64,000 nucleotides of DNA. Origin: a virus. The DNA lies in IMG/VR virus record IMGVR_UViG_3300046787_000327, positions 48,952 to 112,951 of that record; one strand, written 5' to 3'. Numbering within the stretch: position 1 is the first letter of the stretch; each line of letters opens with the position of its first letter. The notes beneath the pieces were generated by a model that saw nothing but the letters and a program-made list of their open reading frames with translations, searched no databases and was not told where the DNA came from. This document shows positions 35,911 to 61,285 of this stretch, one piece after another. The position numbers and the translations under genes are program-made.

Positions 35911-35937
35911 AGTCCTGGGCATGACTATAAACTGCCT
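35911..35937 (+). ncRNA. H-type pseudoknot motif, copy 1
   Basis: AGTC-CTGGGCAT-GACT-ATAAAC-TGCCT. Confidence 0.65.
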
Positions 35938-36493
35938 ACTTTAATCTTAAGAATGTTGTCATTGAATACCTTGTTCCATCGTATACTTCCTTGACTCCAT
36001 GGCGATACGCTTCATGTGCAGGGTGCAAAACTAAACTGTAGGCTTCTGGCTTAAACTCTAAGCCGATGTTAGGATAGAATATTTCTCCACCTTGGTAGTC
36101 ACCATTCAAGTAAAGAACAACTCCGTATTTGAACTTGGGGCCAAGACCAGAATCACTATGTGTTTTCATTAGTTGTCCTTTAGATGCCCTGTAAATGCCA
36201 CTGAACCCAGTGTATTCATAGATATCTTTGTTAAGTATTTTATTAATTTCTTTTTGAATTTTAACAAATAGATCATTAACAAGTTTTTGTTTTTCTGTAT
36301 CAAATCCTTCACACTGATCCAAAAGAAGGATTCTATCTTCCCACTCATTGTGTTCATCTCTATCTGTATTATTATACTTTGCCCACTCTTCTCTAGTAGC
36401 ACTTTTTGCTAGACCTGCCAAAGATAAGGCATCGTTAGGTGTTATAAAATTTTTTATTACAAAAATGTTAGGATCAGGATTTGTTATTATCAT
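35936..36493 (-). CDS. 2OG-Fe(II) oxygenase (prolyl-hydroxylase-like)
   Basis: HSD...VLYLNGDYQGGE...HGVKEV..GTRY; likely leaderless start at 36493. Confidence 0.88.
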   Translation of the reverse strand: MIITNPDPNIFVIKNFITPNDALSLAGLAKSATREEWAKYNNTDRDEHNEWEDRILLLDQCEGFDTEKQKLVNDLFVKIQKEINKILNKDIYEYTGFSGIYRASKGQLMKTHSDSGLGPKFKYGVVLYLNGDYQGGEIFYPNIGLEFKPEAYSLVLHPAHEAYRHGVKEVYDGTRYSMTTFLRLK

Positions 36494-36522
36494 ACATATA
36501 GTATACACTGCCAAGTCACTAG

Positions 36523-36551
36523 TTGACAGGTATTATGCCATATGCTATAAT
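36523..36551 (+). promoter_or_regulatory. Consensus SigA promoter for the endolysin operon
   Basis: TTGACA-17-TATAAT with TG extension; AAGGAGG SD downstream. Confidence 0.8.
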
Positions 36552-36579
36552 TAACTAGAACTCAAAGGAGGCCATAACC

Positions 36580-37359
36580 ATGGCGGTAAAAGGATCAGTA
36601 GAAGCAATCATTGAGGTTGCCAAGAAAGAAGTTGGAACCATTGAAGGTCCAAAAGATAATGAAACTAAGTACGGAGCATGGATGAAGGTTAACTTCCAGC
36701 CATGGTGCCAGTCCTTTGTTTCTTGGTGTGCATCACAGGCTGGTGTAGCAAAGTTTCCAAAGTCTGCTTCAACAGTAGCAGCATCAGATCAGTTTAAGAA
36801 GGAGGGTCGTTGGGCAGATGCTCGTAATGACGATCCAACTCCAGGAGACTGGATTTATTTTGATTTCCCAGATGATGGTGTAAATCGTATTTCACACGTA
36901 GGTCTTTGCATCAAGAACAATGGTGATGGCACTATTCAAGTTATTGAAGGAAACACTTCAGGAACTGCTAAGGGAGACCAGCGAAATGGCGGAATGTGTG
37001 TAGAGAAGACTCGTGCATATGTAAAGAACAAGAAGGGCATTCTTAATGCTGTTGTAGGTTGGGGTCGTCCAGTCTATGCAGGAGAAGAAAATGCTCCGTT
37101 GCTTTCTAAGGCTACAACTGTTGCAGAAGCAAAGCCTGCATCAAAGACAGTAGCAAAGAAGTCTGCTGCATTTAAGCCACTTAAGAATGGCTCTAAGGGC
37201 ACTGGTGTAAAGACTATTCAGACACTTCTTGGCATTAAGGCTGATGGATCATTTGGTCCAGGCACTGCAAAGGCTGTTCAAGACTTCCAAAAGAAGGCGG
37301 GACTGCCAACAACAGGTATTGTTGATCAGGCTACGCTAAAGGCATTGAAGGCAAAGTAA
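36580..37359 (+). CDS. Endolysin: CHAP domain + peptidoglycan-binding domain
   Basis: PWCQSFVSW, SHVGL, IEGNT; C-terminal GSKG..VKTIQ..DGSFGPGT..AVQDFQ. Confidence 0.9.
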   Translation: MAVKGSVEAIIEVAKKEVGTIEGPKDNETKYGAWMKVNFQPWCQSFVSWCASQAGVAKFPKSASTVAASDQFKKEGRWADARNDDPTPGDWIYFDFPDDGVNRISHVGLCIKNNGDGTIQVIEGNTSGTAKGDQRNGGMCVEKTRAYVKNKKGILNAVVGWGRPVYAGEENAPLLSKATTVAEAKPASKTVAKKSAAFKPLKNGSKGTGVKTIQTLLGIKADGSFGPGTAKAVQDFQKKAGLPTTGIVDQATLKALKAK

Positions 37360-37559
37360 TGGAATCAACTAAGAGAACATTATTAAAGACAGCAAGTTGG
37401 GAAACTTTTCACCTTGTTGGTGTTGCTGGAGTAATTTATTTGTTTACTGGTGAATGGGAGTATGCAAGTCTTGGTGCTCTTTTGTATATTGGCTGGGAAG
37501 CAATCGGATACTTTCTTCATGAAAGAGTCTGGGCAAAGTTTGGGCATAAGGTGAAGTAA
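37359..37559 (+). CDS. DUF2061-like small membrane protein
   Basis: RTLLKTASW...YFLHERVW. Confidence 0.75.
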   Translation: MESTKRTLLKTASWETFHLVGVAGVIYLFTGEWEYASLGALLYIGWEAIGYFLHERVWAKFGHKVK

Positions 37560-38398
37560 TGATTGATATCAGCCCAGTAGATTTTATATCTATACCAGAG
37601 ATCAAAGATAACCCTGACAAATACAAGGAAATCTACTTTAGAGATAAGATTATTGTATTTCGCAATGCTAATCTAAATGAAGAGCAGCAGTCAGAATTGA
37701 TGATCTTTTTTGGTGATCTATTGGGCTGGTACCCAAACTCAGAAAAGCCTACGATACTTAATTATAAGGAAGACCACCATAGACAAATGGTCAATGGAAT
37801 TGATATTCCTAAAGATCAACTTATGTTGTCTTGGCATGTAGAGCATGTTGAAAACGAAGAAGATCCTCACTGTGGGGCAACCTGGAGAATGGAAAAGTTT
37901 GAATGCGATGAAGACTCTGGTCATACATATTTTGTTGATATGACAAATATGTATAATCTTTTACAAAAAGATGAGCAAGACTTTCTATCAAAGTGTGAGG
38001 TAAGAGTTGAGACTACTGTTCGTAGAGATGAAAATGAAGAAGTAAAAGAGTTTGAGATCATAAGAAACTTTAACTGTATTAGTCTTCATCCAGTAACTGG
38101 AGAAAAAACTGTGCGATTGTCATTATTTTCAGAGCACGGACTACTAAATAGTTTAAACAAGTTTGATGGTCGTGATCCTAGCAAAGAAGAAAATGATAAG
38201 TTTGTTAGAATTTATAAATGGATCATTGACCAGGTTTGGTACAACGAAGATATTCGCATGGTGTTACGATGGAAGCAAGGAGATCTTGCTGTACCAGACT
38301 TATACAAACTTGCACACTCAGTAAGTGGTGGTTTTACAAAAAATCAGAGGACGCTGCGTGGGCAATTTGGAAAATTAAAGCCTTGGAGAGGAGAATAA
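37559..38398 (+). CDS. TauD/TfdA-family dioxygenase
   Basis: IIVFRN, WHVE, HPVTGEK, WKQGDL...H...R. Confidence 0.8.
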   Translation: MIDISPVDFISIPEIKDNPDKYKEIYFRDKIIVFRNANLNEEQQSELMIFFGDLLGWYPNSEKPTILNYKEDHHRQMVNGIDIPKDQLMLSWHVEHVENEEDPHCGATWRMEKFECDEDSGHTYFVDMTNMYNLLQKDEQDFLSKCEVRVETTVRRDENEEVKEFEIIRNFNCISLHPVTGEKTVRLSLFSEHGLLNSLNKFDGRDPSKEENDKFVRIYKWIIDQVWYNEDIRMVLRWKQGDLAVPDLYKLAHSVSGGFTKNQRTLRGQFGKLKPWRGE

Positions 38399-38399
38399 G

Positions 38400-38510
38400 A
38401 TGCGTATTAAAATTATTAAATTAGTTATAAATTTTTTAGGTTATGAAATGGGGAGACAATTTCCTAACTCACCAGTATGGATGATTAAAGAAAAGAAAAA
38501 GGTTAAGTAA
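38400..38510 (+). CDS. Small hypothetical protein (not in ORF track)
   Basis: 36 aa after a GAGGAG SD; fills the gap exactly. Confidence 0.45.
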   Translation: MRIKIIKLVINFLGYEMGRQFPNSPVWMIKEKKKVK

Positions 38511-38511
38511 T

Positions 38512-38700
38512 ATGGCATTATATGAATACAAGTGTACTGGTTCTTGCGAGGGTATTATCCCAATCAAAAGGCCTATGGCAGATGATGATCCAGGGTATAA
38601 CTGTGAGACTTGCAATCTACCTCTAACTCGTGTATACTCAGATGTAGGAGCAGTTTTCACTGGGAGTGGCTTTTATAGCACCGATAATAGAAAGAAGTAG
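38512..38700 (+). CDS. FmdB-family zinc ribbon protein
   Basis: YEYKC...CETC...FTGSGFYSTD. Confidence 0.85.
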   Translation: MALYEYKCTGSCEGIIPIKRPMADDDPGYNCETCNLPLTRVYSDVGAVFTGSGFYSTDNRKK

Positions 38701-38708
38701 AGTATACT

Positions 38709-38975
38709 ATGAGTACAATGACCAATACAGTAAAAGTTGTAGATGCAGCAGAGTACCGACTAGGAGCACAAGACCGCTGTGACGCAGCGTGTTCAGCAGA
38801 GGCTTTGGTTCAAGTTACTGGTCTTGATGGAGACCTAATGTTCTGTGGACACCACTACAACAAGATCATGTCTATTCCAGATGCTAAGAATAATATGATG
38901 AAGTTTGCCATTACAATTCGTGATGAGCGTGATAAGTTAATTGAAAACAAGTTAAAGGATGAAAACTATGTATGA
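38709..38975 (+). CDS. Actinobacterial-type small Cys/His protein
   Basis: DRCDA.C...LMFCGHH...DER. Confidence 0.65.
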   Translation: MSTMTNTVKVVDAAEYRLGAQDRCDAACSAEALVQVTGLDGDLMFCGHHYNKIMSIPDAKNNMMKFAITIRDERDKLIENKLKDENYV

Positions 38976-39375
38976 GTATTATGTTAGAAAAGTAGAGAAT
39001 GTTGTTGATGGAGATACCATCGATGTTCTTATTGATTTAGGGTTTGATATCCTCTTTGCATCTCGTGTAAGATTGGCTGGTATTGATACCCCTGAGTCTC
39101 GCACAAAGGATCTTGCTGAGAAGGCTCTTGGTCTAGAAGCAAAAGATTACCTAAAGAAGGCTCTTAAGGATGCAAAGTCTGTTGTCATTAAGACTGAGAA
39201 GATGGACTCATCTGAGAAGTATGGTCGCATTTTGGGCTGGGTATATATTAATGGAGATACAGTATCTCTCAATGACATGATGATCAATGATGGTTATGCA
39301 TGGGGATATCTAGGCGATACCAAGGTTAAGGACTTCGATGCACTTGCAAAGGCTAGAAAGAAGTCTGGCAAATGA
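38968..39375 (+). CDS. Thermonuclease (SNase-like)
   Basis: VVDGDTI, VRLAGIDTPE, KYGRIL. Confidence 0.9.
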   Translation: MYEYYVRKVENVVDGDTIDVLIDLGFDILFASRVRLAGIDTPESRTKDLAEKALGLEAKDYLKKALKDAKSVVIKTEKMDSSEKYGRILGWVYINGDTVSLNDMMINDGYAWGYLGDTKVKDFDALAKARKKSGK

Positions 39376-39623
39376 GTCATGTCCTATACTTTACTGCTGA
39401 GTGGTGTAACCCATGTCAGCGAACAAGGCCTGTTGCAGAAGAGTTGAAGAGAGATGGAGTCATCGACTTCATGTTTATTGATGCTGACACAGAAGTAGAA
39501 CTTCTTACAAAGTTTGGGGTTAAGTCAATCCCAACATACATTCTTCTTGAAGATGGAAGAGAAGTTAAACGCATGAATGGTGCAAAAACAAAACAAGATT
39601 TCTTAGACTTTATTGGAGAATAA
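39372..39623 (+). CDS. Thioredoxin
   Basis: FTAEWCNPC, SIPT. Confidence 0.9.
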   Translation: MSHVLYFTAEWCNPCQRTRPVAEELKRDGVIDFMFIDADTEVELLTKFGVKSIPTYILLEDGREVKRMNGAKTKQDFLDFIGE

Positions 39624-39844
39624 TGAATCCAAAATCAGATGCCATGATTGAGCATCTAATTAATCAGGGTGCAGTGGAAATATTTGATATTGATCACGAC
39701 GGCCATATGCTATACAAGATAACAGATAGACTTAAAGAAGTAAGTCCAGAAATGTATGAAAACTTACGAGATCAATATGAAGATCATCTGTTTAGGCTTG
39801 TAGAGCAGGGACCTACGACTATGACTTGGAGACTTAATGGATGA
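39623..39844 (+). CDS. Hypothetical protein, paralogue of the next gene
   Basis: IEHLINQGAVE...GHMLYKITDRLKEVSPE. Confidence 0.6.
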   Translation: MNPKSDAMIEHLINQGAVEIFDIDHDGHMLYKITDRLKEVSPEMYENLRDQYEDHLFRLVEQGPTTMTWRLNG

Positions 39845-40169
39845 CGATCAGATAATCGAAGATCTTATTCTTAGTGGTGCATTAGAGTTTGCTGGATTAG
39901 ATATTGATTCTGGTGAGATGCTGTATAACTTTACCGAAAAGTTAAAGGATATTAATCCAGAATTGCACAATGAATTCTCCACATATTTCTATTCAGAGGT
40001 TTCAGAACTATGGGCCTCTGGATTTTTGGATATGTACTTTACAGAAGATAATCCAAAGGTTACTCTTACTGCAAAAGCACTCGATCCAGATGAGGTTGCA
40101 AAGTTAGATAAAGAAAAGCAGTACACACTGAAAGAAATAGTACGAATAATTATGAAAGATGGAAAGTAG
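39837..40169 (+). CDS. Hypothetical protein
   Basis: IEDLILSGALE...GEMLYNFTEKLKDINPE. Confidence 0.65.
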   Translation: MDDDQIIEDLILSGALEFAGLDIDSGEMLYNFTEKLKDINPELHNEFSTYFYSEVSELWASGFLDMYFTEDNPKVTLTAKALDPDEVAKLDKEKQYTLKEIVRIIMKDGK

Positions 40170-40177
40170 GAGGCGTA

Positions 40178-40603
40178 ATGGAATTCTTATTGGGGTCAGT
40201 TGTAACCACAATAATCCTTTATGCTGCCATGAAGTATTTTGAAAAACTATACCTTGTTGTAACAAAAGATAATAAGTATAAGTTTAATCAAAGTTCCTTG
40301 CATGAACTGGTTAAACCATTACTTCCAGAAGATCTTTTTATTCCAGAAAGAAAAATAACACAGTCATTTTTGCATGAACAAAAAACAAACATGCGTGTTA
40401 TTATTTTGGATGGATTTGCTTATTGGATTAAAGACAATACATTTTATAGGTCTGAGATGGATGGCTTTGATATTAGAAAAGACTCAGCAGAAGTAGTTGA
40501 CATAATGGGTTTGAATAAGGTACAATTAGATAAGATGATTTTTATTATAGATAAACTAAGGGAAGGATTACCCAATGATAGTTGGAGTACAGGGAACGAG
40601 TAA
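40178..40603 (+). CDS. Membrane-anchored hypothetical protein
   Basis: N-terminal TM helix; AGGAGG SD. Confidence 0.6.
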   Translation: MEFLLGSVVTTIILYAAMKYFEKLYLVVTKDNKYKFNQSSLHELVKPLLPEDLFIPERKITQSFLHEQKTNMRVIILDGFAYWIKDNTFYRSEMDGFDIRKDSAEVVDIMGLNKVQLDKMIFIIDKLREGLPNDSWSTGNE

Positions 40604-40925
40604 TTTTTCCGACTACAAAGTTTTTCTTCGTAGCATGGCAGTTGCAATGTCAATGCTTACTGAAGAAGATTTAGAGTTTGAGATCTATTCTGCAGGTCCA
40701 GGAAATATCAATGATATGGTTTCTGAGTTTACAAACCTATCAGAGCGAGGACTAAAGGCTCGTGGAAAGAAGATTAAGTTTCACAAAGTTGCTCCAACAT
40801 GGATCAGCGATAACATCAAGTCATTTAGATATATCGTTTACTTGGCAACACCAAGTGAGCAATCGTCTAAATTAGTTCTAGAAGCACAAGACAACAATGT
40901 CGAAGTGGGAATTTTCAAATACTAA
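40575..40925 (+). CDS. SLOG/YspA-like protein (tentative)
   Basis: MIVGVQGTSNFSDY start and Rossmannoid pattern. Confidence 0.45.
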   Translation: MIVGVQGTSNFSDYKVFLRSMAVAMSMLTEEDLEFEIYSAGPGNINDMVSEFTNLSERGLKARGKKIKFHKVAPTWISDNIKSFRYIVYLATPSEQSSKLVLEAQDNNVEVGIFKY

Positions 40926-40935
40926 GGAGTATGAA

Positions 40936-41145
40936 ATGGTAGTAACAACACTTGAAAAGATGGAAGAGATTGTTTCAAACAACAAGGCTCTCAGTTGGAA
41001 TGGCTGGACTGTAGTCCACTCATTTGTTTCAGACAAGGCACGAACATCAAAGTTTGGCGCACTCGTTGACGGTAAGTGGCAGATGCAAAAGGAATTCGTT
41101 CCAACAAACACTGGGTGGGAGATCCCAGACAAGTTTGTGAGGTAG
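40936..41145 (+). CDS. Hypothetical protein
   Basis: AAGGAG SD, ATG 40936. Confidence 0.6.
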   Translation: MVVTTLEKMEEIVSNNKALSWNGWTVVHSFVSDKARTSKFGALVDGKWQMQKEFVPTNTGWEIPDKFVR

Positions 41146-41148
41146 CCA

Positions 41149-41430
41149 ATGAAGCACGATTGGAAAGACCAGGCTTTGTGTTTAGATTATGACACAAATC
41201 TGTTCTTTGATAAGTATGAAGAAGATGAGTTACTAAGACCAGCAATTGATAAGTTCTGCTCTGGATGTCCAGTAGCAAAGACTTGTTTTGCAGTTGGTGT
41301 ATCTCAAAAAGAGTGGGGAATTTGGGGAGGAGTCTACCTAGAAGGTGGCGGTATCTCTAAAGAATTTAGTAAGCATAAGTCAAAGGCTGACTGGGCAACA
41401 ACCTGGCAGTATCTGACTATGGAGGTTTAG
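41149..41430 (+). CDS. whiB: WhiB-family Fe-S transcription regulator
   Basis: W..QALC...LFF...CSGCPVAKTC...WGIWGG. Confidence 0.92.
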   Translation: MKHDWKDQALCLDYDTNLFFDKYEEDELLRPAIDKFCSGCPVAKTCFAVGVSQKEWGIWGGVYLEGGGISKEFSKHKSKADWATTWQYLTMEV

Positions 41431-41431
41431 T

Positions 41432-41641
41432 ATGTGGTCATGGATATTAGCAGCAGTTGGGGTAACTGGAATCTTCCTAGTTGGTCGTAAGACTATCTGG
41501 GGATGGCTAATCCTATTGCTCAATGAATGTATCTGGATTGCATATGCTCTTGCGACTAAGCAATATGGCTTTATTGCAATGGCTACCGCATATTCTGCGG
41601 TATATATTAAATCTTTTATTCATTGGAAGAGAGACGAATAG
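41432..41641 (+). CDS. PnuC-like small membrane protein
   Basis: Three TM helices; GRKTIWGW...QYGF. Confidence 0.6.
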   Translation: MWSWILAAVGVTGIFLVGRKTIWGWLILLLNECIWIAYALATKQYGFIAMATAYSAVYIKSFIHWKRDE

Positions 41642-41880: not shown

Positions 41881-41966
41881 TATGGAAAATAGTACTGAGA
41901 CTACATTCGACGATGAGTTTCCTCGTGATGGTGCCACTATCAAGGATATAAGATTGGAGATGACAG

Positions 41967-42365: not shown

Positions 42366-42366
42366 C

Positions 42367-43550: not shown

Positions 43551-43637
43551 CCTATACACCCAGACACCTGGGCAGTGTAGGTAACACAAGGGTCGCTACC
43601 CCTTGGATGGTGTCCTGAGCATGACCATAAACTGCTC
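43551..43637 (+). ncRNA. Candidate small RNA: two hairpins + pseudoknot motif copy 2 (43612-43637)
   Basis: TATAAT at 43540; CCTATAC/GTGTAGG + CCCAG/CTGGG; CAAGGG/CCCTTG; GTC-CTGAGCAT-GAC-CATAAAC-TGCTC. Confidence 0.6.
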
Positions 43638-47058: not shown

Positions 47059-47133
47059 TGGTAGCCCCAACGGGAATCGAACCCGTCTTGCCAGATTGAA
47101 AATCTGGAGTCCTAACCGATAGACGATAGGGCC
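47059..47133 (-). tRNA. tRNA-Glu(TTC), CCA encoded
   Basis: Cloverleaf; anticodon arm CCAGA-TTTTCAA-TCTGG; GTTCGA T-loop. Confidence 0.93.
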
Positions 47134-47137
47134 TTAG

Positions 47138-47217
47138 TCCGTCATCTTGGAATCGAACCAAGCATGCTATCAGCGGGGGATTTACAGTCCCCTGTCCCAC
47201 CTTGGAACATATGACGG
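47138..47217 (-). tRNA. tRNA-Tyr(GTA)
   Basis: GGGGA-CTGTAAA-TCCCC; 13-nt variable region; acceptor CCGTCAT/ATGACGG. Confidence 0.88.
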
Positions 47218-47222
47218 AAAAG

Positions 47223-47305
47223 CGGAAATAATAGGATTCGAACCTATGGATCTTTCGATCTACGATTTAGCAAACCGTTGCATTCGGCCTCTCTGCCATA
47301 TTTCC
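47223..47305 (-). tRNA. tRNA-Ser(GCT)
   Basis: ACGGT-TTGCTAA-ATCGT; long variable arm; G73. Confidence 0.92.
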
Positions 47306-47310
47306 ATTTG

Positions 47311-47383
47311 CTGGGGATGCAGGCCTCGATCCTGCGACTTGCGAATTAACAGTTCGCCACTCTACCAACTGAGTTAATCCCCA
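47311..47383 (-). tRNA. tRNA-Asn(GTT)
   Basis: GCGAA-CTGTTAA-TTCGC; T-loop variant ATCGAGG. Confidence 0.9.
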
Positions 47384-47417
47384 TTGTATTAAAAGTATAT
47401 CATATTAAGTTGTTTTG

Positions 47418-47489
47418 CGTCCCCGATAGGATTCGAACCTATGACCTACACCTTAGAAGGGTGTCACTCTTCCGCTGAGTTACGGAGAC
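47418..47489 (-). tRNA. tRNA-Arg(TCT)
   Basis: ACACC-CTTCTAA-GGTGT. Confidence 0.93.
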
Positions 47490-47493
47490 TTAG

Positions 47494-47567
47494 TACAACA
47501 GGTAGGACTCGAACCTACGATAACCGAATTATGAGTTCGGGGCCTTAACCGACTTGGCTACTGTTGC
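47494..47567 (-). tRNA. tRNA with CAT anticodon (Ile2 or elongator Met)
   Basis: CCGAA-CTCATAA-TTCGG; lacks initiator features. Confidence 0.88.
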
Positions 47568-47580
47568 TTATTTAGTTTTG

Positions 47581-47651
47581 CTTCTCCCCTAGGACTCGAA
47601 CCTAGATTGCTGGTGCCAAAAACCAGAGTCCTGCCATTGGACGAAGGAGAA
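47581..47651 (-). tRNA. tRNA-Gln(TTG)
   Basis: CTGGT-TTTTGGC-ACCAG; U1:A72, G73. Confidence 0.9.
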
Positions 47652-47655
47652 TTAG

Positions 47656-47729
47656 TGCTTCTCACAGGACTTGAACCTGTAACACCCAGATCCTAAATCT
47701 GGTGCCTCTACCAATTGGGCTAGAGAAGC
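47656..47729 (-). tRNA. tRNA-Leu(TAG), short variable loop
   Basis: CCAGA-TTTAGGA-TCTGG; 5-nt variable region. Confidence 0.88.
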
Positions 47730-47743
47730 AATGTGAGCAGAAT

Positions 47744-47900
47744 GTGACTAGCATCCTCTCACTGACTCTACACTAGATATCCTACGAGTAGTAGCAACCA
47801 CGGACACACTCGTTCCTGCGGTAAGGTTAGTACCGTTGCTAGATTTCGGTCCAGTCCCTACATATCTTATTCACGATTGATATAACCGAGTGTTAGTCAC
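47744..47900. ncRNA. Candidate ~160-nt structured RNA inside the tRNA array
   Basis: Terminal stem GTGACTAGCA/TGTTAGTCAC; inner stems AGATAT/ATATCT, TAGCAAC/GTTGCTA, ACGAGT/ACTCGT. Confidence 0.55.
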
Positions 47901-47907
47901 TACACTG

Positions 47908-47978
47908 CAGAGTCTCTAGGAGTCGAACCTAGGCTTACCGCTTTGGAGACGGTAGTGCTTCCGTAACACTTAGACCCT
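47908..47978 (-). tRNA. tRNA-Trp(CCA)
   Basis: ACCGT-CTCCAAA-GCGGT. Confidence 0.9.
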
Positions 47979-47979
47979 A

Positions 47980-48053
47980 TGGAGCGAGTGACCAGACTCG
48001 AACTGGCACCTCCAACTTGGAAGGATGGCGTACTGCCCTTATACTACACTCGC
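47980..48053 (-). tRNA. tRNA-Gly(TCC), CCA encoded
   Basis: CCATC-CTTCCAA-GTTGG; GCG start, U73. Confidence 0.92.
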
Positions 48054-48076
48054 AATTACTCTATTTAATTATACTG

Positions 48077-48149
48077 TACCCGAAGTGAGATTCGAACTCA
48101 CGCTTGGTAAATTTTAAGTCTACTGCCTCTACCGCTGGGCTATTCGGGC
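48077..48149 (-). tRNA. tRNA-Leu(TAA), short variable loop
   Basis: GTAGA-CTTAAAA-TTTAC; 5-nt variable region. Confidence 0.88.
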
Positions 48150-55293: not shown

Positions 55294-55400
55294 GTTTGTT
55301 TGGTAAAATGCAAATTGGGTGGTTTGTCCGATATGTCCGATTTGACGTCCAGGACGTCCCCACCCCCAGGCTTTTGTCAAGCCCAGGGGATCAGGGAGAA

Positions 55401-55709: not shown

Positions 55710-55711
55710 AT

Positions 55712-55933
55712 TTATCTCCCTTTGGTTTCTTCCATAAGTTTATCATACTCTTCTTGTGCAGTCAAGGCTAAAACATCAAACCTCTTAAACACGATTACTG
55801 GTAGATTTCTTACCAAGTAATATCCTACTCGCTCTAAGTCAATCGAAAAATCTTCCGTAAGGAGTTTCGCTAACTGTTCTGCTTTTCTTGATTCTTTAGT
55901 ATGTACTGGAGTTGCTCTTATACTTCTAGCCAT
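55712..55933 (-). CDS. Hypothetical protein
   Basis: AAGGAG SD. Confidence 0.65.
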   Translation of the reverse strand: MARSIRATPVHTKESRKAEQLAKLLTEDFSIDLERVGYYLVRNLPVIVFKRFDVLALTAQEEYDKLMEETKGR

Positions 55934-56038
55934 GATACTCCCTTCCTGTTAATTGTACCGCAAAAGTTAGGGGGAGGCAAACCCCATGCTTACCTCCCCA
56001 CTGCCACCGTAGACCCCTCTGTGGTGGCTTATGGCCTG

Positions 56039-56383
56039 CTATGCAGGAACTCTATCATATGCATTAATGAATGCCTCAAAATCTACGGGCACATTATCAG
56101 TAATAGTCTTGTTAACAAAGTCAATGACTACCGTCTGCTCGCCTAGGTCAAAGTTAGTACCTGATACCGCATAGATACCAAAGCCTGTCTCATCTAGGAT
56201 GCTATCTGAAATAAGATAACTAATCATCATTCTGGTCCCATACGTAGAATCAAACCAGCGAGGCTTGGCATGCACAAGTGCTGCAGCAATGTCAGTCTCC
56301 CATGAGTCTTGGCCCCAGTGTGAGTATAGAACTACGGATGAATCAGTACCATCCTTGAATACAAAATTAATACGGGCTCCCAT
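56039..56383 (-). CDS. Hypothetical protein (LYSHWG motif)
   Basis: Coupled ORF. Confidence 0.7.
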   Translation of the reverse strand: MGARINFVFKDGTDSSVVLYSHWGQDSWETDIAAALVHAKPRWFDSTYGTRMMISYLISDSILDETGFGIYAVSGTNFDLGEQTVVIDFVNKTITDNVPVDFEAFINAYDRVPA

Positions 56384-56535
56384 TACTCTTCATCCAATCT
56401 CTCTAGTGCTACGATGCTAATGTCATACAGAATTTCCTTGTATACCTCGTCCATCTCTTCGGTATCAGTGTTAGCCTCAAAACTCATATACTGTCCTGTT
56501 GGCTCGTGTATTACTTCAATTGACCATTTTGGCAT
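56383..56535 (-). CDS. Small acidic protein (not in ORF track)
   Basis: 50 aa; stop/start overlaps on both sides. Confidence 0.6.
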   Translation of the reverse strand: MPKWSIEVIHEPTGQYMSFEANTDTEEMDEVYKEILYDISIVALERLDEE

Positions 56536-57050
56536 TATCGTCCACCTAGGTCAAACCATGTATCTTCTGTTTCTACATCTTTGTTTTCTGTCATTTGGGT
56601 CTCCTCTGTTGGGTTCTCTAATTTTAGCATTTCTTCTTCGGTAATGCAAATCGGGCATCGCTCATAGTCATAGTATCTATCATTAATTAATTGGCCATCA
56701 TCTTCCATCTCTTCCCCGCAACCTTCGCAGTAGTACCAGTATGAAGAGACTTTGATTTGGATAACGCACTCTTCCTCATTTGGTGCGGGGACCTCGGTAA
56801 TGAAGTATCCTAATCTATTTATATAGTGAAAGCCATTCCAGATATAAGAACCACCATCATCACCATCACCATAGGTCCAGATACAGAGTGGATTCTGCTG
56901 CTTAACAAACTCATACTCATCACCATATGTCTCAAACATAATGCCTGAACCTGATTCATCTTGGAATGAGGCATTCTTGTCTATATGATTAGTGATAGGC
57001 TTGTAAGTGGCTGTCCACTCTTCCATTGTCATTTCTTTAAAGTCGCTCAT
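56535..57050 (-). CDS. Hypothetical protein (FETYG...GFHYINRLGY + Zn finger)
   Basis: SD + CCCC spacer before ATG. Confidence 0.7.
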   Translation of the reverse strand: MSDFKEMTMEEWTATYKPITNHIDKNASFQDESGSGIMFETYGDEYEFVKQQNPLCIWTYGDGDDGGSYIWNGFHYINRLGYFITEVPAPNEEECVIQIKVSSYWYYCEGCGEEMEDDGQLINDRYYDYERCPICITEEEMLKLENPTEETQMTENKDVETEDTWFDLGGR

Positions 57051-57096
57051 GGGGTGTCTTTCTACTAGGGTATATTATAAGTATAGCGGTTTGATA

Positions 57097-57351
57097 TTAA
57101 TCTGTCAACTTCATACGGACAATATCATAGGCATCAATCGCCCCTGCTGTGTAATCAGACATGGCATCTTCGTTCTCCTGGATATACTCATCACGCAGTA
57201 GGGTTAGTTCTTCAATACGCCCCTTTACAAATGACAACAGATCCTGGGTAACATTATCCTCTGCACAATCTCCGCAGTAGGTTTCATCTCCATGTGAATA
57301 AGGAAGAGAAGTTCCACATCCATTGCACCAAGACTCATCATACATTCCCAT
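57097..57351 (-). CDS. Small Zn-finger protein
   Basis: CNGC...CGDC. Confidence 0.6.
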   Translation of the reverse strand: MGMYDESWCNGCGTSLPYSHGDETYCGDCAEDNVTQDLLSFVKGRIEELTLLRDEYIQENEDAMSDYTAGAIDAYDIVRMKLTD

Positions 57352-57557
57352 TACTCAACCTCAATCACTGGTAGGTAGTCTGCATTAAAGATTAGTGAGT
57401 AGGCAGATGACAAACCTTCTGCATATCCTTCTGCATGGGTGCGTTCCATAGAGAGCATTGCATCAGAGTAGTCGTCCTCTTCTTCCTCTTTAGCAATCTC
57501 ATTGAACTCAGCCCAAGCCTTATCAATCATTTGCTTTAGCATTTCTTGTGGGGTCAT
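57351..57557 (-). CDS. Acidic hypothetical protein
   Basis: AAGGAG SD before 57557. Confidence 0.6.
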   Translation of the reverse strand: MTPQEMLKQMIDKAWAEFNEIAKEEEEDDYSDAMLSMERTHAEGYAEGLSSAYSLIFNADYLPVIEVE

Positions 57558-57567
57558 TTGTTTCTCC

Positions 57568-58095
57568 TTAGCAGTGAAAATCAATTGGTACTAAAAATTG
57601 TAGCAGACCTGATTTGGATTTGTCAAGTCGCTCTGGCAGGTATCCCATGTGTGCTGTGTATTCAACCATATCGTAAAAGTAGGAGTCAGATGTATAACTA
57701 TCTGATAACAGTTCCCCTGCCTTTTTGATATAGTATGAGTTCATATCAAATCGGTTCTCATCAGCAGGTAGTCCACTGTTTGAGATGTAGTCAACGATAT
57801 CACTCATAAACTTATCAGTCTTGATACGCTTTAGCATATGGTTCATCTCATCAATACGAGCCTGCTTGCATGATTGGATAATCTCATTAAACTTGTCAGG
57901 GTCTTCTGTATAAGACACAACCATATCAGATGAGTTCTCATACTGTGAGTCAGACCAACGCCCTCCTCCAACTACATGCCAGTCAGACCATTCAACAAAG
58001 TTGCCTCCGTCATCATTAATTAATCTAGCAACAACTTGGTTAAAAGCGTCTTCTTTATCTTCAGCCTCAACAGCCCACCAATGTAATGTATGCAT
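57568..58095 (-). CDS. Hypothetical protein (DWHVVGGGRWS...PIDFH)
   Basis: Coupled ORF. Confidence 0.7.
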   Translation of the reverse strand: MHTLHWWAVEAEDKEDAFNQVVARLINDDGGNFVEWSDWHVVGGGRWSDSQYENSSDMVVSYTEDPDKFNEIIQSCKQARIDEMNHMLKRIKTDKFMSDIVDYISNSGLPADENRFDMNSYYIKKAGELLSDSYTSDSYFYDMVEYTAHMGYLPERLDKSKSGLLQFLVPIDFHC

Positions 58096-58289
58096 TAGTC
58101 TTCTGTCTCCCCGTCTTCGTCCTCATCTTCGTAGACTTCTTCAGCCATTTCTTCTACATTAATTGAATAGACTTCTGAGAACATTGTGTAATCTTCCCAC
58201 TTCCAGCCTTGCTCTTCTGCTTCCTCAACTGAGTTAGCCTCTACTTCGTATTCAAGGTCTACTCGTACTTTTACATAATACTGTGGCAT
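58095..58289 (-). CDS. Small acidic protein
   Basis: AAGGAG SD; VEANSVEEA motif. Confidence 0.65.
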   Translation of the reverse strand: MPQYYVKVRVDLEYEVEANSVEEAEEQGWKWEDYTMFSEVYSINVEEMAEEVYEDEDEDGETED

Positions 58290-58313
58290 TTGGGTCTCCT
58301 TTTGTTGTATATA

Positions 58314-58520
58314 TTAATTATAGGGGTTGGTGTTGATTTTTACAACTTGTGGGGATGTGATGTTAGTCACAGGCTCCTTGACTGTAGCATCTTCCCAGCC
58401 TAAGAGGATCAGTTCATTAGGATAATCACACACACAGGTGGGGGACTGCTTAAAATCCTGGGTAGTGACTTCAAACATAGTATCACAGTATGTACAGATA
58501 AGGTTATACTTAAGCCACAT
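58314..58520 (-). CDS. Small Zn-ribbon protein whose 3' end overlaps the next promoter
   Basis: CTYC...CVC. Confidence 0.55.
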   Translation of the reverse strand: MWLKYNLICTYCDTMFEVTTQDFKQSPTCVCDYPNELILLGWEDATVKEPVTNITSPQVVKINTNPYN

Positions 58521-58521
58521 A

Positions 58522-58686
58522 TTACTCCCCCCAATACTGCATAATAAGATTCATAGTAGTGTGTAGAGAACAATCACAGTCTCCACCGTTCATGTTTTCC
58601 ATGAATTCAAAGTGCGATAGGTTATCCTCGTAGATTTCTTGTACGAGTTCGTGGATAGCATAGGGCTTATAAGTTGTTTGGGTCAT
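58522..58686 (-). CDS. Small hypothetical protein, leaderless (not in ORF track)
   Basis: 54 aa MTQTTYKPY...GGDCDCSLH; TTGTAT-17-TACAAT just upstream. Confidence 0.6.
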   Translation of the reverse strand: MTQTTYKPYAIHELVQEIYEDNLSHFEFMENMNGGDCDCSLHTTMNLIMQYWGE

Positions 58687-58817
58687 GTATTAATTGTAGC
58701 AAAACCTGGGGAAAAATACAACTCTTCGTAAACCGTTTTGACCTAAAATGTATGTGATATGCATCACAGGGGACGTCCCCGCATTTTTATGCAGAGCCCT
58801 GCATATTTATTTACTTG

Positions 58818-58891
58818 CGATCCGTACGGGACTCGAACCCGTGACCTCCACCGTGACAGGGTGGCGAACTAACCAACTATTCTAACGGACC
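58818..58891 (-). tRNA. tRNA-Asp(GTC)
   Basis: CCACC-CTGTCAC-GGTGG; G73. Confidence 0.93.
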
Positions 58892-58895
58892 TTGA

Positions 58896-58924
58896 TGAGC
58901 CTTTTGAAATCATGCTCAGGATTT
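58896..58924 (-). ncRNA. Pseudoknot motif copy 3 (leader of tRNA-Asp)
   Basis: AAATC-CTGAGCAT-GATTT-CAAAAG-GCTCA. Confidence 0.65.
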
Positions 58925-58938
58925 AATTATAGCAGATG

Positions 58939-59961
58939 CTATGCTAATTGCATAACGCCCTGCACAATTTTTAGCAAGCGATTCTTCTCTGCGTTAATTG
59001 CAGGGTCAAATCCTGATGCTGATGCAAGAATAGATTCGTTAGAACCATTACGAGCAGAGCGGTACCAGTCTAGTCGCTCAGTGAGTGCATTGTAAGCACC
59101 CCAAGCGTTACCAGCAATCATGCCATTGAATTCACCAGTGTAGATATCGTTAATAACATCTACCTTGTTTTCCCACTTCTTGAACGCACCCTTAGAATCC
59201 TTCTCAGGCTTAGGGTATGCAGCAAGAATGATATCGTTGAAAGCCTTAGCATTGACTTCCTTCTCGAACATAGCCTTAGCCATGATGTCGAATTCGTCCA
59301 TGTATGCATTAGCAAGACCAAGAGTCTCACGAGCAATCTGCACCTTGCCTGATGCGGTTTGCGTGTGGCGAATCTTGAATGACTGTTTGATTCCCTTATT
59401 CTTCTTACGACCTACGCCACCAAGAGCAAGGTTAAGAGTGTTAGCACACACAACACGAACGGGAGTGATAGATGCCTGAATAGCAATAGAACCGTCGTGT
59501 GATGTGTTGATGAGAAGATAAGTTTTAACCTTATCTGCAACACCGCTAGGGTCAAGAACTGTCTCACGCTCTAGGGCAAGAGCACCGAATACAACACGCC
59601 CACCCTTGATAGAGCCAGCGGTTTCCCATCGTCCGCCACCGTCTAGGATATTATCACCGAATGAGAATAAATCTTCATTCTGCATAACATGGTAACGCTC
59701 ACCAACCACACCAAGAATATCAGTCTGATTCTTGTCGGTAGGGTTAGTACGCAAAACATATTGGTAATTCTTATCGCTTGTAAGATGGGTAGGGGTTTCC
59801 AAATCCTCAAGACGAACATTCCAACCATTGAGGTTTGCAGCCTCAAGCATTTCTGCGGTTGTCTTTTCTTCTGTGAATACGGTACCCAATCCATGCCAAG
59901 CAGGTTCACGGAAAGATGCGAAAGATGTCTTGCCGTTTTGAATTTCTAGGTCATGTGCCAT
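58939..59961 (-). CDS. DUF932 family protein
   Basis: PAWHGLG, ETAGSIKGGR, SHDGS, TPVRVVCANTL, IRHT. Confidence 0.9.
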   Translation of the reverse strand: MAHDLEIQNGKTSFASFREPAWHGLGTVFTEEKTTAEMLEAANLNGWNVRLEDLETPTHLTSDKNYQYVLRTNPTDKNQTDILGVVGERYHVMQNEDLFSFGDNILDGGGRWETAGSIKGGRVVFGALALERETVLDPSGVADKVKTYLLINTSHDGSIAIQASITPVRVVCANTLNLALGGVGRKKNKGIKQSFKIRHTQTASGKVQIARETLGLANAYMDEFDIMAKAMFEKEVNAKAFNDIILAAYPKPEKDSKGAFKKWENKVDVINDIYTGEFNGMIAGNAWGAYNALTERLDWYRSARNGSNESILASASGFDPAINAEKNRLLKIVQGVMQLA

Positions 59962-60137
59962 GAGTTATCTCTTTTCTGTTTGTTGATAATATAAGTATAC
60001 ACAACACCACCGACAAATACAAATCGGGATAGTTAAACATAGGGCAAATCGGACATTTTTGATGTGATCTTAAACACACGGCGTGTCGACTTGACAAACC
60101 TTGATCGGCGGGACGTCGCAAAATTTGAGAGTTTTGG

Positions 60138-60167
60138 TGAGCAGTTTACATGGCCATGCTCAGGGCC
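60138..60167 (-). ncRNA. Pseudoknot motif copy 4
   Basis: GGCC-CTGAGCAT-GGCC-ATGTAAAC-TGCTCA. Confidence 0.65.
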
Positions 60168-60212
60168 CTTACCCAGTTTTTAGACATCTGGTAGGTCCAT
60201 GCTCATAGCCCC

Positions 60213-60641
60213 CTATGAAATATTGTCGGATGATTGCAATGACGAAACATCAAGTGAGAAATCATCAATTGAATAATCAAATGAGTCAACACTGAATTCA
60301 AGACCATTCGCAACATCATCTGCGTCAACATCGAATGGAACCTCTAGTTCGATTTCGAAATCAACTGTTGCAGTTACGGTAACTGTCTTTGTAAGTTCGA
60401 AGTCGCAAATCTCTGCAAGAGACTGTGCAACATTCTCACTGATATCATTATCACGCAATGACTCTACTACGTATTCTTTAACTGTATTAATAAGGTTTTG
60501 GCGTTCGGCCTTTACGGTGAAGGCATATGAAGAATTCTTAGAGACCTCATCTTGCAGGCGAGTGATGTACTCATCCTTTTTCTCAATAAGTTCAAGTAGT
60601 GCTGCTGCTTGACGCTCTAGGTAATCGGTTGTTGCTGACAT
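60213..60641 (-). CDS. Acidic hypothetical protein
   Basis: GAGG + CCCCCT spacer before ATG 60641. Confidence 0.65.
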   Translation of the reverse strand: MSATTDYLERQAAALLELIEKKDEYITRLQDEVSKNSSYAFTVKAERQNLINTVKEYVVESLRDNDISENVAQSLAEICDFELTKTVTVTATVDFEIELEVPFDVDADDVANGLEFSVDSFDYSIDDFSLDVSSLQSSDNIS

Positions 60642-60736
60642 AGGGGGTACCTCTTTCGTTGTTGTTATTAATACTAGTCTACACGAGACCTCTGACAAAT
60701 ACAAATCCTGTGATCCATTTGGGCTACCCTGGTGGG

Positions 60737-60764
60737 TGAGCAGTTTTACAACTTGCTCAGGTTA
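60737..60764 (-). ncRNA. Pseudoknot motif copy 5
   Basis: TAAC-CTGAGCAA-GTTG-TAAAAC-TGCTCA. Confidence 0.65.
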
Positions 60765-60817
60765 GTTTGGGGGAGAGGCTTGAACTAGGTATTGCTACCT
60801 CTCTCCCCCAATTCTAT

Positions 60818-61219
60818 TTAGAGGTACTGTGCTACCTGCTTGAAGGTTGAGGCATTTACAAACTCCTCATCAGTCATTTTGAGAATACGAATTGCGTTCT
60901 CAATCTCTACGATTTCGTACTGACCAAGTTCACGCTCCAAGTCCATTGAAGGCTTCTCAGGAAGTTTAACTGTATTAGCAGGAAGTGTGATAGTTACATT
61001 GAGTTCGTTGCGCCAGTTCTCATGTGCAGAAACTTCTGCCTTTGAGATATGCTTGAACACAATATCCGCAACTTCCTTAGCATACGACTTCTCTGTTTTT
61101 TCGTAGTCCTTACGCTTCTTCTCGTTAGAAACTTCTGCCTTCTTTGCAGACGCTAACTTATCTTCAAGTGCCTTGATTACCTTAGTTGTTGCTACCTTAA
61201 CTGAAATTGCTCTTGCCAT
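60818..61219 (-). CDS. Hypothetical protein
   Basis: 133 aa; SD + CCCC spacer. Confidence 0.7.
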   Translation of the reverse strand: MARAISVKVATTKVIKALEDKLASAKKAEVSNEKKRKDYEKTEKSYAKEVADIVFKHISKAEVSAHENWRNELNVTITLPANTVKLPEKPSMDLERELGQYEIVEIENAIRILKMTDEEFVNASTFKQVAQYL

Positions 61220-61256
61220 GTGGGGTCTTTCCTTTTCTATTAGTTGGGGGTTTTGG

Positions 61257-61285
61257 TGAGCCTTTTAACAACTTGCTCAGGTTGT
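61257..61285 (-). ncRNA. Pseudoknot motif copy 6
   Basis: ACAAC-CTGAGCAA-GTTGT-TAAAAG-GCTCA. Confidence 0.65.

Follow-up and report, generated by a model that had tools for sequence, protein, structure and literature searches.

What is the short sequence that recurs between the genes of this phage, and what could it do there? The window, the whole 64-kb stretch of DNA that was analysed, belongs to a phage genome of 112,951 bp. An earlier note on it had described dispersed copies of an H-type RNA pseudoknot with compensatory changes. We found that the motif is a real H-type pseudoknot of about 28 nt, and both of its stems are backed in a larger set of copies.

Copies in the window and in the genome

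By the bit scores of a covariance model built here, which encodes stem 1 only and was run with the filters off, the window holds exactly six copies (39-45 bits; Table 1), and the next match reaches 10 bits. All six lie where the earlier note had placed them, their differing stem 1 (S1) sequences pair as it had described, and copy 1 carries the reported double change GGGCA/UGCCU in stem 2 (S2). The core CCTGRGCAWG occurs 6 times in the window, with about 0.5 occurrences estimated by chance. A seventh copy, with G.U pairs in both stems, is located outside the window at genome positions 1421-1454 on the minus strand.

Table 1. Copies of the motif in the window and the features beside them
Feature	Position	Strand	S1	Loop	L3	S2 3' strand	Next bases	Bits	Context
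Copy 1	35911..35938	+	AGUC/GACU	CUGGGCAU	AUAAAC	UGCCU	A	38.9	8 nt from TAA of ORF 34949-35905 to closing C; downstream gene convergent
Hairpin 5' of copy 2	43587-43605								CAAGGG-UCGCUAC-CCCUUG; also found before the motif in other phages
Copy 2	43612..43637	+	GUC/GAC	CUGAGCAU	CAUAAAC	UGCUC		39.7	
tRNA-Asp(GUC)	58817-58891								downstream of copy 3; starts 5 nt after the knot
Copy 3	58896..58924	-	AAAUC/GAUUU	CUGAGCAU	CAAAAG	GCUC	A	40.7	
DUF932 gene	58939-59961								upstream of copy 3; its TAG is 18 nt before
Copy 4	60138..60167	-	GGCC/GGCC	CUGAGCAU	AUGUAAAC	UGCUC	ACCA	40.7	
Copy 5	60737..60764	-	UAAC/GUUG (outer pair U.G)	CUGAGCAA	UAAAAC	UGCUC	A	45.1	after long GC hairpin 3' of ORF 60818-61219; promoter-like TTGTCA-16-TAGTAT downstream
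Copy 6	61257..61285	-	ACAAC/GUUGU	CUGAGCAA	UAAAAG	GCUC	ACCA	41.3	its end 38 nt upstream of ATG of ORF 60818-61219

Copy 3 had been read as the leader of tRNA-Asp directly after a promoter. The tRNA is there, and relatives keep the motif together with tRNA-Asp, without a TATAAT box. The promoter is doubtful, since the TATAAT box near copy 3 ends just 6 nt upstream of the loop, and transcription initiated there would probably begin within S1. Little was gained from promoter and terminator scans, whose values were near those of shuffled sequence.

Structure and covariation

S1 consists of 3-5 bp with a C-G pair closing the loop (C-G in 305/315 copies, G-C in 8 and U-A in 2). Among unique independent IMG/VR copies, counted with a search pattern that left the flanks free, S1 is Watson-Crick paired at position 2 in 138/138 and at position 3 in 137/138, with four pair types. 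The covariation that the earlier note expected of a larger alignment is clear, with a score of 0.34-0.40 as compared to 0.09-0.13 for shuffles and 0.03-0.11 for slid partners.

The loop reads C-U-G-A-G-C-A-W, with U at position 2 in all copies and U (55%), A (40%), C (3%) or G (2%) as its last base. Within the fold, L1 is C(U), S2 is formed by (U)GAGCA with UGCUC(A), and there is one junction base, A or U. An alignment whose model was made without S2 had, at S2 position 1, 53 rows with A-U, 19 with G-C and 3 without a pair. Moreover, AAGC loops are followed by GCUU in 82/110 matches and by GCUC in 3/110, the partner position being free in the search, and further double changes of S2 are GGGUA/UACCC, GGACA/UGUCC and GAGUA/UACUC. 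The 3' linker of about 6 nt has AAAC at its end: AAA is found in 99-100% of copies, C as the next base in 86% and U after it in 87%. The linker probably occupies the S1 minor groove.

The copies are on the transcribed strand, as had been argued in favour of an RNA over a DNA operator: the upstream ORF is on the same strand as the motif in 7/7 copies of the genome, and in co-directional intergenic regions the ratio of sense to antisense copies is 187/5. Among the copies listed, the mismatches in S2 are G.U in 16 cases and A.C in 0, which also shows the strand, whereas the same comparison at S1 position 4 (12 vs 9) was uninformative. Could the repeat act as DNA, as a REP- or MITE-like element, as the target of a nuclease or transposase, or as a linker in recombination? 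Such a role would suit copies that are dispersed and intergenic, the sequence identity that stops right after the knot in L088 and L094, and the HNH endonuclease genes upstream of 6 copies. Nevertheless, the sense bias, which is not expected of palindromic REP- or MITE-like repeats that work on either strand, the tolerance of G.U but not of A.C in S2, and a spacing to stop and start codons that follows a ribosome-sized rule make this reading scarcely credible, and no flanking direct repeats were noticed.

A widespread family missing from Rfam

The earlier view of a six-copy element was too narrow. The motif is not peculiar to one freshwater actinophage, but belongs to a very large family that is found in hundreds of viral contigs from unrelated phages and in bacteria of many phyla. 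The nearest cultured relative at the DNA level, the Streptomyces phage Persimmon, had no convincing copy (17 bits). The impression that the motif has no named family was borne out: a search of the whole window with Rfam 15 at the gathering score matched tRNAs alone and nothing at the motif, and at E<=10 over positions 58700-61400, which hold four copies, nothing overlapped any copy. A literature search by loop sequence and keywords did not find the phage motif described. What Rfam lacks here is an abundant family of RNAs with strong covariation. GAGC/GCUC also resembles 16S helix 1, the tRNA D-stem and boxA, but over 3-5 bases only, and this was put down to chance.

About 20 positions are strongly conserved across phyla, and short S1 and A-rich 3' linker give the motif the architecture of small pseudoknot riboswitches. 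Both would fit an aptamer for a conserved protein or a small ligand, a riboswitch-like fold of the preQ1-I type. However, a search for a conserved neighbour gene found none; the neighbours include DUF932, Hsp20, HNH endonucleases, DNA-metabolism genes, scaffold proteins, metal ATPases and housekeeping genes, without a function common to them. With flanking genes this diverse, the gene-specific sensor that the earlier note had considered is unlikely. Several copies occur per genome, there is no expression platform, and no Rfam riboswitch model, among them preQ1-I, SAM-II and fluoride, nor any RAGATH motif matched at E<=10. We therefore regard an aptamer as highly improbable. The preQ1-I riboswitch (RF00522) itself, with about 30 nt and an A-rich 3' tail, is likewise a pseudoknot, but it has another loop consensus, and the phage motif shows no link to queuosine genes.

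Resemblance to coremin and other pseudoknots

The known RNA that the motif most resembles is coremin, together with Watson-Crick coremin, an Xrn1-resistant pseudoknot of eukaryotic RNA viruses. Coremin (xrRNA-C) occurs in beny-, cucumo- and other eukaryotic RNA viruses (Dilweg et al. 2019, PMC6546385; 2023, PMC10520033). Its first hairpin, hp1, has at least 3 bp whose pairs may covary and a closing C-G pair, which is inactive as G-C and weaker as U-A; the loop is YGAD or YGNNAD with G fixed at position 2, natural loops having 4-8 nt; the conserved spacer of 10 nt, GUUAAACUAC, is critical in length and essential at A16-A20; and hp2, directly after the spacer, is required for Xrn1 resistance (PMC6546385, PMC10520033). 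Coremin-type knots stall Xrn1 and scanning ribosomes in vitro and promote -1 frameshifting in reticulocyte lysate, and a screen for frameshift-promoting variants has been done in E. coli (PMC6546385, PMC10520033, PMC10321173).

The phage motif shares the covarying hp1 of at least 3 bp and the sequence-specific C-G closing pair, a loop that begins with a pyrimidine and ends in A then D (not C), and part of the spacer, namely the register of closing G, 5 nt and AAACU, the bases essential for Xrn1 stalling. Like coremin, it has several copies per genome that are intergenic or near stop codons. In contrast to coremin, in which G is required as the second loop base, the phage loop has U there, its loop-tail pairing comprises 5-6 Watson-Crick pairs, the equivalent of A20 is a G that is paired in S2, and a conserved second hairpin is lacking. 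The hosts, phages and bacteria, are without Xrn1, and the phage knot is likened to coremin by sequence and fold.

The Watson-Crick form, xrRNA-WCC, was described for Hit1, Hit2 and Sanxia picorna-like virus 5 (Dilweg et al. 2023, PMC10321173). It too is an H-type pseudoknot. Like the phage motif, it has GAG/CUC as the core of S2 and an L1 base that tolerates no change, and its A-rich linker has been proposed to occupy the minor groove of S1. Its S2 has 3 bp and its L1 is a single G, whereas in the phage motif S2 has two additional pairs (CA/UG), L1 is C(U), the linker is longer by one C, and there is a junction base. xrRNA-WCC induces -1 frameshifting without hp2, yet hp2 is needed for Xrn1 stalling.

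The luteovirus-type -1 frameshift knots, which are also discussed in PMC10321173 and of which that of BWYV has 28 nt, are as small as the phage motif. They too have a short S1 and an L1 of 1-2 nt, a single junction base and an A-rich linker of 6-7 nt, and they are placed 5-8 nt after the A-site codon. The phage motif, however, has a stop codon where the slippery sequence would be, and many copies per genome beside unrelated genes. The BWYV knot did not stall Xrn1.

Position relative to genes

Of 186 copies, 92% are intergenic. Measured from the stop codon to the closing C, the spacing has a sharp lower limit of 8 nt, and this is at the same time the commonest distance (34, 21, 12, 15 and 14 copies at 8, 9, 10, 11 and 12 nt), with only 3/228 copies closer. 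A seeming 3-nt periodicity of this distance was accounted for by the fall in counts beyond that limit. On the other side, at least 13 nt separate the knot from the next start codon, with a mode of 18-20. More than 40 nt separate the motif from the stop codon in 47/154 copies. In a bacterial subfamily, the loop UGA is itself the stop codon of a family of 20-aa ORFs, which matched no Pfam or NCBIfam family, so that ribosomes must melt the knot there.

Such spacing raises the question of whether the motif is a translation device, a knot at the mRNA entrance of a ribosome with the stop codon in its A site, which would modulate termination, keep ribosomes from reading through or from sliding and re-initiating after termination, or sometimes drive recoding. 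A minimum that equals the mode puts the first S1 pair 4-6 nt past the stop codon, the spacing at which pseudoknots for -1 frameshifting and read-through are placed. The knot is often preceded by stops in each of the three frames (TAAATAAATAA), and the 20-aa ORFs ending at the loop UGA would fit as well. Coremin-type knots, too, stall scanning ribosomes and stimulate -1 frameshifting (PMC10520033, PMC10321173). On the other hand, neither slippery heptamers nor a conserved extension frame were seen by eye, the knot also occurs after tRNAs (L221, L142), many copies lie more than 40 nt from any stop codon, and the minimum distance is equally explained by staying clear of the ribosome. Weighing these points, we consider a translation device unlikely.

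The motif is also found beside structured RNAs. A tRNA 5' end (Asp, Ser, Arg, Leu) lies 4-13 nt downstream of 20 copies and a tRNA just upstream of 2, the cleavage site of a type III hammerhead is 6-8 nt 3' of the knot in L196 and L188, and a DUF2800 RNA begins 2 nt 3' of it in L025 and L243. The association with tRNA genes is one reason to think of a signal for RNase P or other processing, with stems 1 and 2 stacked as a tRNA-like minihelix, UGCUC-ACCA as built-in guide and a cut between loop U and G. A U followed by G-C at the putative cleavage site agrees with the substrate rules of RNase P, the enzyme is as universal as the spread across phyla would ask for, the base after S2 is A in 64% of copies, and ACCA is the second commonest next tetramer (18/279). 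Yet only 6-12% of copies have ACC(A), and the stacked helix would have 9-10 bp as against 12 in tRNA, which leaves processing of this kind very unlikely.

Directly after S2, U-runs (at least 6 T in 8 bases) were found in 31-37/280 copies as compared to 1-3 in control windows; as shares, these are 11-13% and at most 1%. U-runs are enriched about ten-fold, and by all counts 11-18% of copies have one. The region from +3 to +10 contains 40-45% U and 2-11% G. These U-rich bases could point to a transcription signal, and so could the gene-end location of the knot and the promoter- or operator-like sequences that follow it in the window and in relatives. The signal would be either a non-canonical terminator or attenuator hairpin made of S2 and the U-tract, or an RNA that acts on RNA polymerase by pausing or antitermination. 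But more than 80% of copies lack the U-run, and a tie to convergent gene ends did not hold, as U-runs are no commoner there (15%) than elsewhere. Moreover, the copies 4-13 nt before a tRNA need co-transcription with it, and L143, L169 and L180 have a canonical terminator after the knot. A role in transcription is thus quite unlikely.

A possible roadblock between RNA units

Our preferred reading, which we hold with about even confidence, is that the motif may act as a compact mechanical roadblock that insulates neighbouring RNA units from each other. Each copy would be transcribed within the sense mRNA and fold to the compact pseudoknot in the untranslated gap behind a stop codon, at its closest a terminating ribosome's footprint away. 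Autonomous in its sequence, the knot would halt processive enzymes on the RNA, such as exoribonucleases, scanning RNase E or stray ribosomes. Once terminated or processed a few bases past the knot, the upstream mRNA would retain a 3' end that is protected, and the downstream cistron, tRNA or ribozyme could fold and survive on its own.

The roadblock role gains support because coremin-type relatives act in this way in vitro. It also agrees with the sense-strand, intergenic position behind stop codons, and with the RNA ends or unit borders that often come right after the knot, such as tRNA 5' ends, hammerhead cleavage sites, DUF2800 RNAs and T-runs. An exoribonuclease block had been proposed in the earlier note with RNase J as the enzyme; the likeness to the coremin xrRNA favours the block in general, while a role specific to RNase J is weakened, because RNase J scored above the cut-off in only 1/5 motif-bearing bacterial genomes examined, which may be incomplete. 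The second hairpin hp2, without which coremin does not resist Xrn1, shows no enrichment downstream of the phage motif: of 279 copies, 94 have a hairpin of 4 bp or more that begins 0-3 nt behind S2, and shuffled sequence gives a mean of 93.9. A sequence conserved across phyla would not be needed by a pure exonuclease stop and would count against the roadblock, as would the bacterial subfamily in which ribosomes have to melt the knot to reach the loop UGA. The 23 copies at convergent gene ends and the 15 at divergent gene starts do not say whether the upstream or the downstream unit is the beneficiary.

We tentatively put forward a wider proposal, which is possible but somewhat less than probable. 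Bacteria and phages may own a universal counterpart of the xrRNA and coremin elements of eukaryotic viruses, a 28-nt triplex pseudoknot one ribosome footprint behind stop codons, which would partition polycistronic RNAs by halting exoribonucleases and ribosomes whatever the host lineage. The coremin fold would then be ancient and cross-domain, rather than a speciality of plant viruses.

Whatever the function, the precise positional rule of at least 8 nt past the stop codon makes clear experiments possible. If the roadblock reading is true, 28 nt would be small enough for a portable part that stabilises or insulates cistrons in synthetic operons. Among the RNA folds described in bacteria and phages, the motif would then be the first widespread one that stops exonucleases or ribosomes, and it would link the design of phage mRNAs to the xrRNAs of eukaryotic RNA viruses.

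Motif copies in the window and in the genome

The earlier note had described six copies of an H-type pseudoknot in the window (Table), and both the sites and the fold were found to be correct. Each site reads S1 - CUGRGCAW - S1' - A-rich linker - (U/G)GCYY, where S1 and S1' are the strands of stem 1. There are exactly six occurrences of the 10-mer CCTGRGCAWG in the window, compared with about 0.5 that we estimate for chance. Using the covariance model R1, which was built from 107 copies with stem 1 as the sole structure encoded, over the whole window with filters off, we recovered the six sites with scores of 39-45 bits, followed by a match of 10 bits. The window covers bases 48952-112951 of the source record (112,951 bp, 40% G+C, with a 127-bp terminal repeat). 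A seventh copy lies outside it on the minus strand of the record, upstream of the motif cluster at the window's end. It reads GGAUC CUGAGCAU GAUUU AAAACU GCUU and shows G.U pairing in stem 1 (GGAUC/GAUUU) as well as in stem 2 (GAGC/GCUU). Genes near the window copies include those of a DUF932 protein, a GP88-family protein and a CHAP/PG-binding endolysin. At the DNA level the genome weakly resembles Streptomyces phages of about 130 kb, as would fit an actinophage.

Hairpins are found close to several copies. In the window, CAUAG-GGGG-CUAUG encloses the TAG stop of an ORF, and the same (U)AGGGGGCUA hairpin stands immediately 5' of motif copies with the loop CUGAGCAC in loci L011, L032, L059 and L067. 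Another, CAAGGG-UCGCUAC-CCCUUG, lies just 5' of copy 2, and similar GGG(U)CGCUACCC hairpins, often with additional ones, precede the motif in L102, L117, L079, L056 and L076. The recurrence of the latter points to a leader that is larger and composite in some phages. Moreover, both palindromes (GTGATC-N3-GATCAC or TGTGA-N6-TCACA) and promoter-like hexamers lie 3' of several motif copies, in the window and in the relatives L010, L032, L058, L067 and L083.

Coordinates of motif copies and neighbouring features (L-numbers are loci carrying the motif, from the motif searches)
Feature	Sequence	Position	Strand
Motif copy 1	window	35911-35938	+
Motif copy 2	window	43612-43637	+
Motif copy 3	window	58896-58924	-
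Motif copy 4	window	60138-60167	-
Motif copy 5	window	60737-60764	-
Motif copy 6	window	61257-61285	-
Motif copy 7 (L001)	genome	1421-1454	-
Hairpin 5' of copy 2	window	43587-43605	+
Hairpin enclosing TAG stop	window	60204-60217	-
ORF with this TAG stop	window	60213-60704	
Palindromes	window	60041-60110	-
tRNA cluster (11 genes)	window	47059-48149	-
Solitary tRNA-Asp	window	58817-58891	-
DUF2800 RNA (RF02960)	L025	285-445	
DUF2800 RNA (RF02960)	L243	5432-5592	
Short ORF	L179	5052-5111	
Short ORF	L234	7520-7579	
Short ORF	L222	247-306	
Short ORF	L156	3979-4038	
Short ORF	L133	7240-7299	
Short ORF	L241	6845-6904	
Short ORF	L143	4884-4961	
Short ORF	L239	692-751	

Evidence for both stems

The first IMG/VR pattern, in which loop, closing pair, AAA and GCTC were fixed and the flanks left free, matched at least 119 loci. 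Despite the free flanks, at least three complementary pairs surround the loop in 144 of the 145 matches listed. All 138 unique copies among these have a Watson-Crick pair at S1 position 2, and 137 have one at position 3; four pair types occur at either position. The covariation score of alignment A1 was 0.339, compared with 0.091 when shuffled and at most 0.066 with slid partners.

Since stem 2 (S2) was fixed by this pattern, it was checked by three separate tests. R1 matches in the flanks of the fetched loci yielded compensated variants (CUAAGCAW with GCUU, CUGGGUAU with UACCC, CUGGACAU with UGUCC, CUGAGUAU with UACUC), one closing pair reversed to G-C, and 16 cases of G.U with zero A.C. When a second pattern with AAGC loops and unconstrained last two tail bases was scanned, 82 of the 110 listed hits with a valid S1 carried GCUU and 3 carried GCUC. 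Alignment A6 was derived from a model that does not include S2; at pair 10-36 it has A-U in 53 rows, G-C in 19 and no pairing in 3, and an A-U replacement is seen twice at pair 12-34. A structure-only scan, demanding no loop sequence, gave 456 candidates compared with 84 in shuffled loci; the first loop (L1) is CU in 315 of the 456, and the closing pair is C-G in 305 of those 315. In two copies S2 and S1' are separated by an extra hairpin, an insertion of the kind expected for a modular fold. The S1 covariation, the three S2 tests, the structure-only scan and the insertions make the H-type pseudoknot well supported. This support goes beyond what the earlier note could have known.

Three S1 pairs are obligatory and four to five are common, and the L1 consensus is C(U). 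The 5' strand of S2 is RRGYA (GAGCA 59%, AAGCA 22%, GAGUA 7%) and its 3' strand UGCUC. The junction base is U in 55%, A in 40%, C in 3% and G in 2%, and the linker ends in AAA (99-100%), then C (86%). An A after S2, present in 64% of copies, could extend this stem; the 6-8 bases beyond its position are U-rich and almost without G.

Comparison with coremin

Coremin RNAs are Xrn1-resistant pseudoknots of eukaryotic RNA viruses. They begin with a hairpin of 3 bp or more, closed at its loop by a sequence-specific C-G pair; the loop is YGAD or YGNNAD, with 4-8 nt tolerated. Next come a 10-nt spacer, GUUAAACUAC, whose A16-A20 are essential, and a second hairpin (PMC6546385, PMC10520033). In the Watson-Crick type, loop GAG is paired with spacer CUC, and an H-type pseudoknot has been modelled in which the A-rich linker occupies the minor groove of S1 (PMC10321173). 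Such knots stall Xrn1 and scanning ribosomes in vitro (PMC6546385, PMC10520033, PMC10321173). They were also shown to promote -1 frameshifting in reticulocyte lysate, and a screen for variants with this frameshifting activity was run in E. coli (PMC10520033, PMC10321173).

The phage motif has in common with coremin the C-G closing pair, the register of closing G, five bases, AAAC and U, the penultimate loop A and a last loop position where C is avoided, and with the Watson-Crick type the GAG/CUC core. However, its second loop base is U instead of G, S2 has two pairs more, L1 and the linker are each one base longer, and no second hairpin is conserved. We describe the motif as probably working like this family but, as it departs from coremin in two defining features that were tested, do not file it as a member.

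Position relative to genes

In the first set, 92% of 186 copies are intergenic. In co-directional intergenic regions of a larger set, 187 copies are sense and 5 antisense; a repeat acting at the DNA level is barely credible. Convergent gene ends (23) and divergent gene starts (15) both occur as contexts.

The spacing between the end of the upstream stop codon and the invariant closing C is cut off sharply at 8 nt, with 34, 21, 12, 15 and 14 copies at 8, 9, 10, 11 and 12 nt (n=228) and only 3 below 8 nt. Given an S1 of 3-5 bp, the first S1 pair lies 4-6 nt past the stop codon. A ribosome whose A site is occupied by the stop codon has its footprint edge here, at the mRNA channel, and frameshift and read-through pseudoknots use the same spacing. 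At this distance the knot might control the terminating ribosome, which we consider unlikely, if the strongest of the rival readings. On the downstream side at least 13 nt separate the knot from the nearest start codon with an SD, and 18-20 nt is the commonest spacing.

A bacterial subfamily breaks the stop-distance rule. Here, ORFs of 20-26 aa with a strong SD end at a UGA that is the loop UGA (Table, among others); they occur in Thermodesulfobacteriota, Geobacteraceae and other bacteria, next to housekeeping genes. Their consensus is M-x-R/K-F/Y-x-x-P-R-V-A-H-C-x-E/S-G-C-x-x-x-S, with M-R-W-M-F-P-H-A-T-H-C-S-x-C-G-S as a second type, and no family in Pfam or NCBIfam was matched.

Of 288 copies, 20, window copy 3 among them, are followed after 4-13 nt by the start of a same-strand tRNA (14 for Asp, 3 for Ser, 2 for Arg and 1 for Leu), and only 2 have a tRNA ending just upstream. 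Of the window tRNA genes, the solitary tRNA-Asp alone carries the knot in its leader, and the order DUF932 - knot - tRNA-Asp is kept in at least 13 related contigs. That the motif is a signal for RNase P or processing, of the tRNA-like minihelix kind, we regard as quite improbable. Directly 3' of the knot in L196 and L188 lies a complete type III hammerhead, its stem III beginning at the base after S2 and its cleavage site 6-8 nt downstream of the knot. Two DUF2800 RNAs start 2 nt after stem 2. At least six T in 8 bases, starting 1-3 nt from stem 2, were found in 31-37 of 280 copies compared with 1-5 in control windows, and convergent gene ends are not enriched in such runs. That the motif is a transcription terminator, pause or antitermination signal is unlikely.

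Distribution and possible function

The first pattern gave at least 122 matches in bacterial and archaeal species genomes (596 Gb), 91 with a proper S1 among the matches listed; those without one are at the chance level estimated for 596 Gb. The 91 include many from Saccharibacteria, and others from Lachnospiraceae and other Clostridia, Geobacteraceae, Thermodesulfobacteriota, Prevotella, Bacteroidales, Paenibacillus, Calothrix, Polynucleobacter, Sinorhizobium and further groups. Cultured carriers are, for example, Paenibacillus ottowii, Calothrix sp. CCY 0018, Clostridium sp. LS and Sinorhizobium sp. CB7. Their flanking genes belong partly to phages or mobile elements (ArdA, gp5.9, YqaJ, scaffold proteins, HTH regulators) and partly to the chromosome (three heavy-metal P-type ATPases, FUR, LemA). 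In viral loci, the upstream genes are largely early or DNA-metabolism genes, with DUF932 (phrog_1221) in 21, Hsp20 in 8 and HNH endonucleases in 6, besides polymerases, RNR and SSB. No single gene association is shared among the flanking genes of viral and bacterial loci, which argues against a classical riboswitch; an aptamer for a protein or ligand is very improbable.

Two pairs of contigs (L088 and L094, L047 and L115) are identical across the upstream gene end and the knot, and their identity stops immediately past stem 2. It may be that the conserved 28-mer indicates where phage modules are joined by recombination, or even acts as the joint itself.

In every reading the function is one that we infer. 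A role as roadblock or insulator, to which we give roughly even chances, is ranked first because the fold class is one built to resist unwinding, the knot is kept just outside ribosome footprints on both sides, it lies at borders of RNA units (ORF/ORF, ORF/tRNA, ORF/ribozyme, operon end), and a 3' end made by termination, RNase P or hammerhead would often lie a few bases behind it. The exoribonuclease block proposed in the earlier note would be one form of this role. Its RNase J-specific version is weakened, as of five bacterial genomes with the motif, whose completeness is uncertain, only one had an RNase J (TIGR00649) match above cut-off.

None of the Rfam 15 models matches the motif, and in the literature searched by sequence and keywords we found no description of it in phages. 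The six copies stand, but the motif is not confined to one phage. It forms a very large family that spans phyla, to which, among known RNAs, the coremin xrRNAs of eukaryotic RNA viruses come closest.
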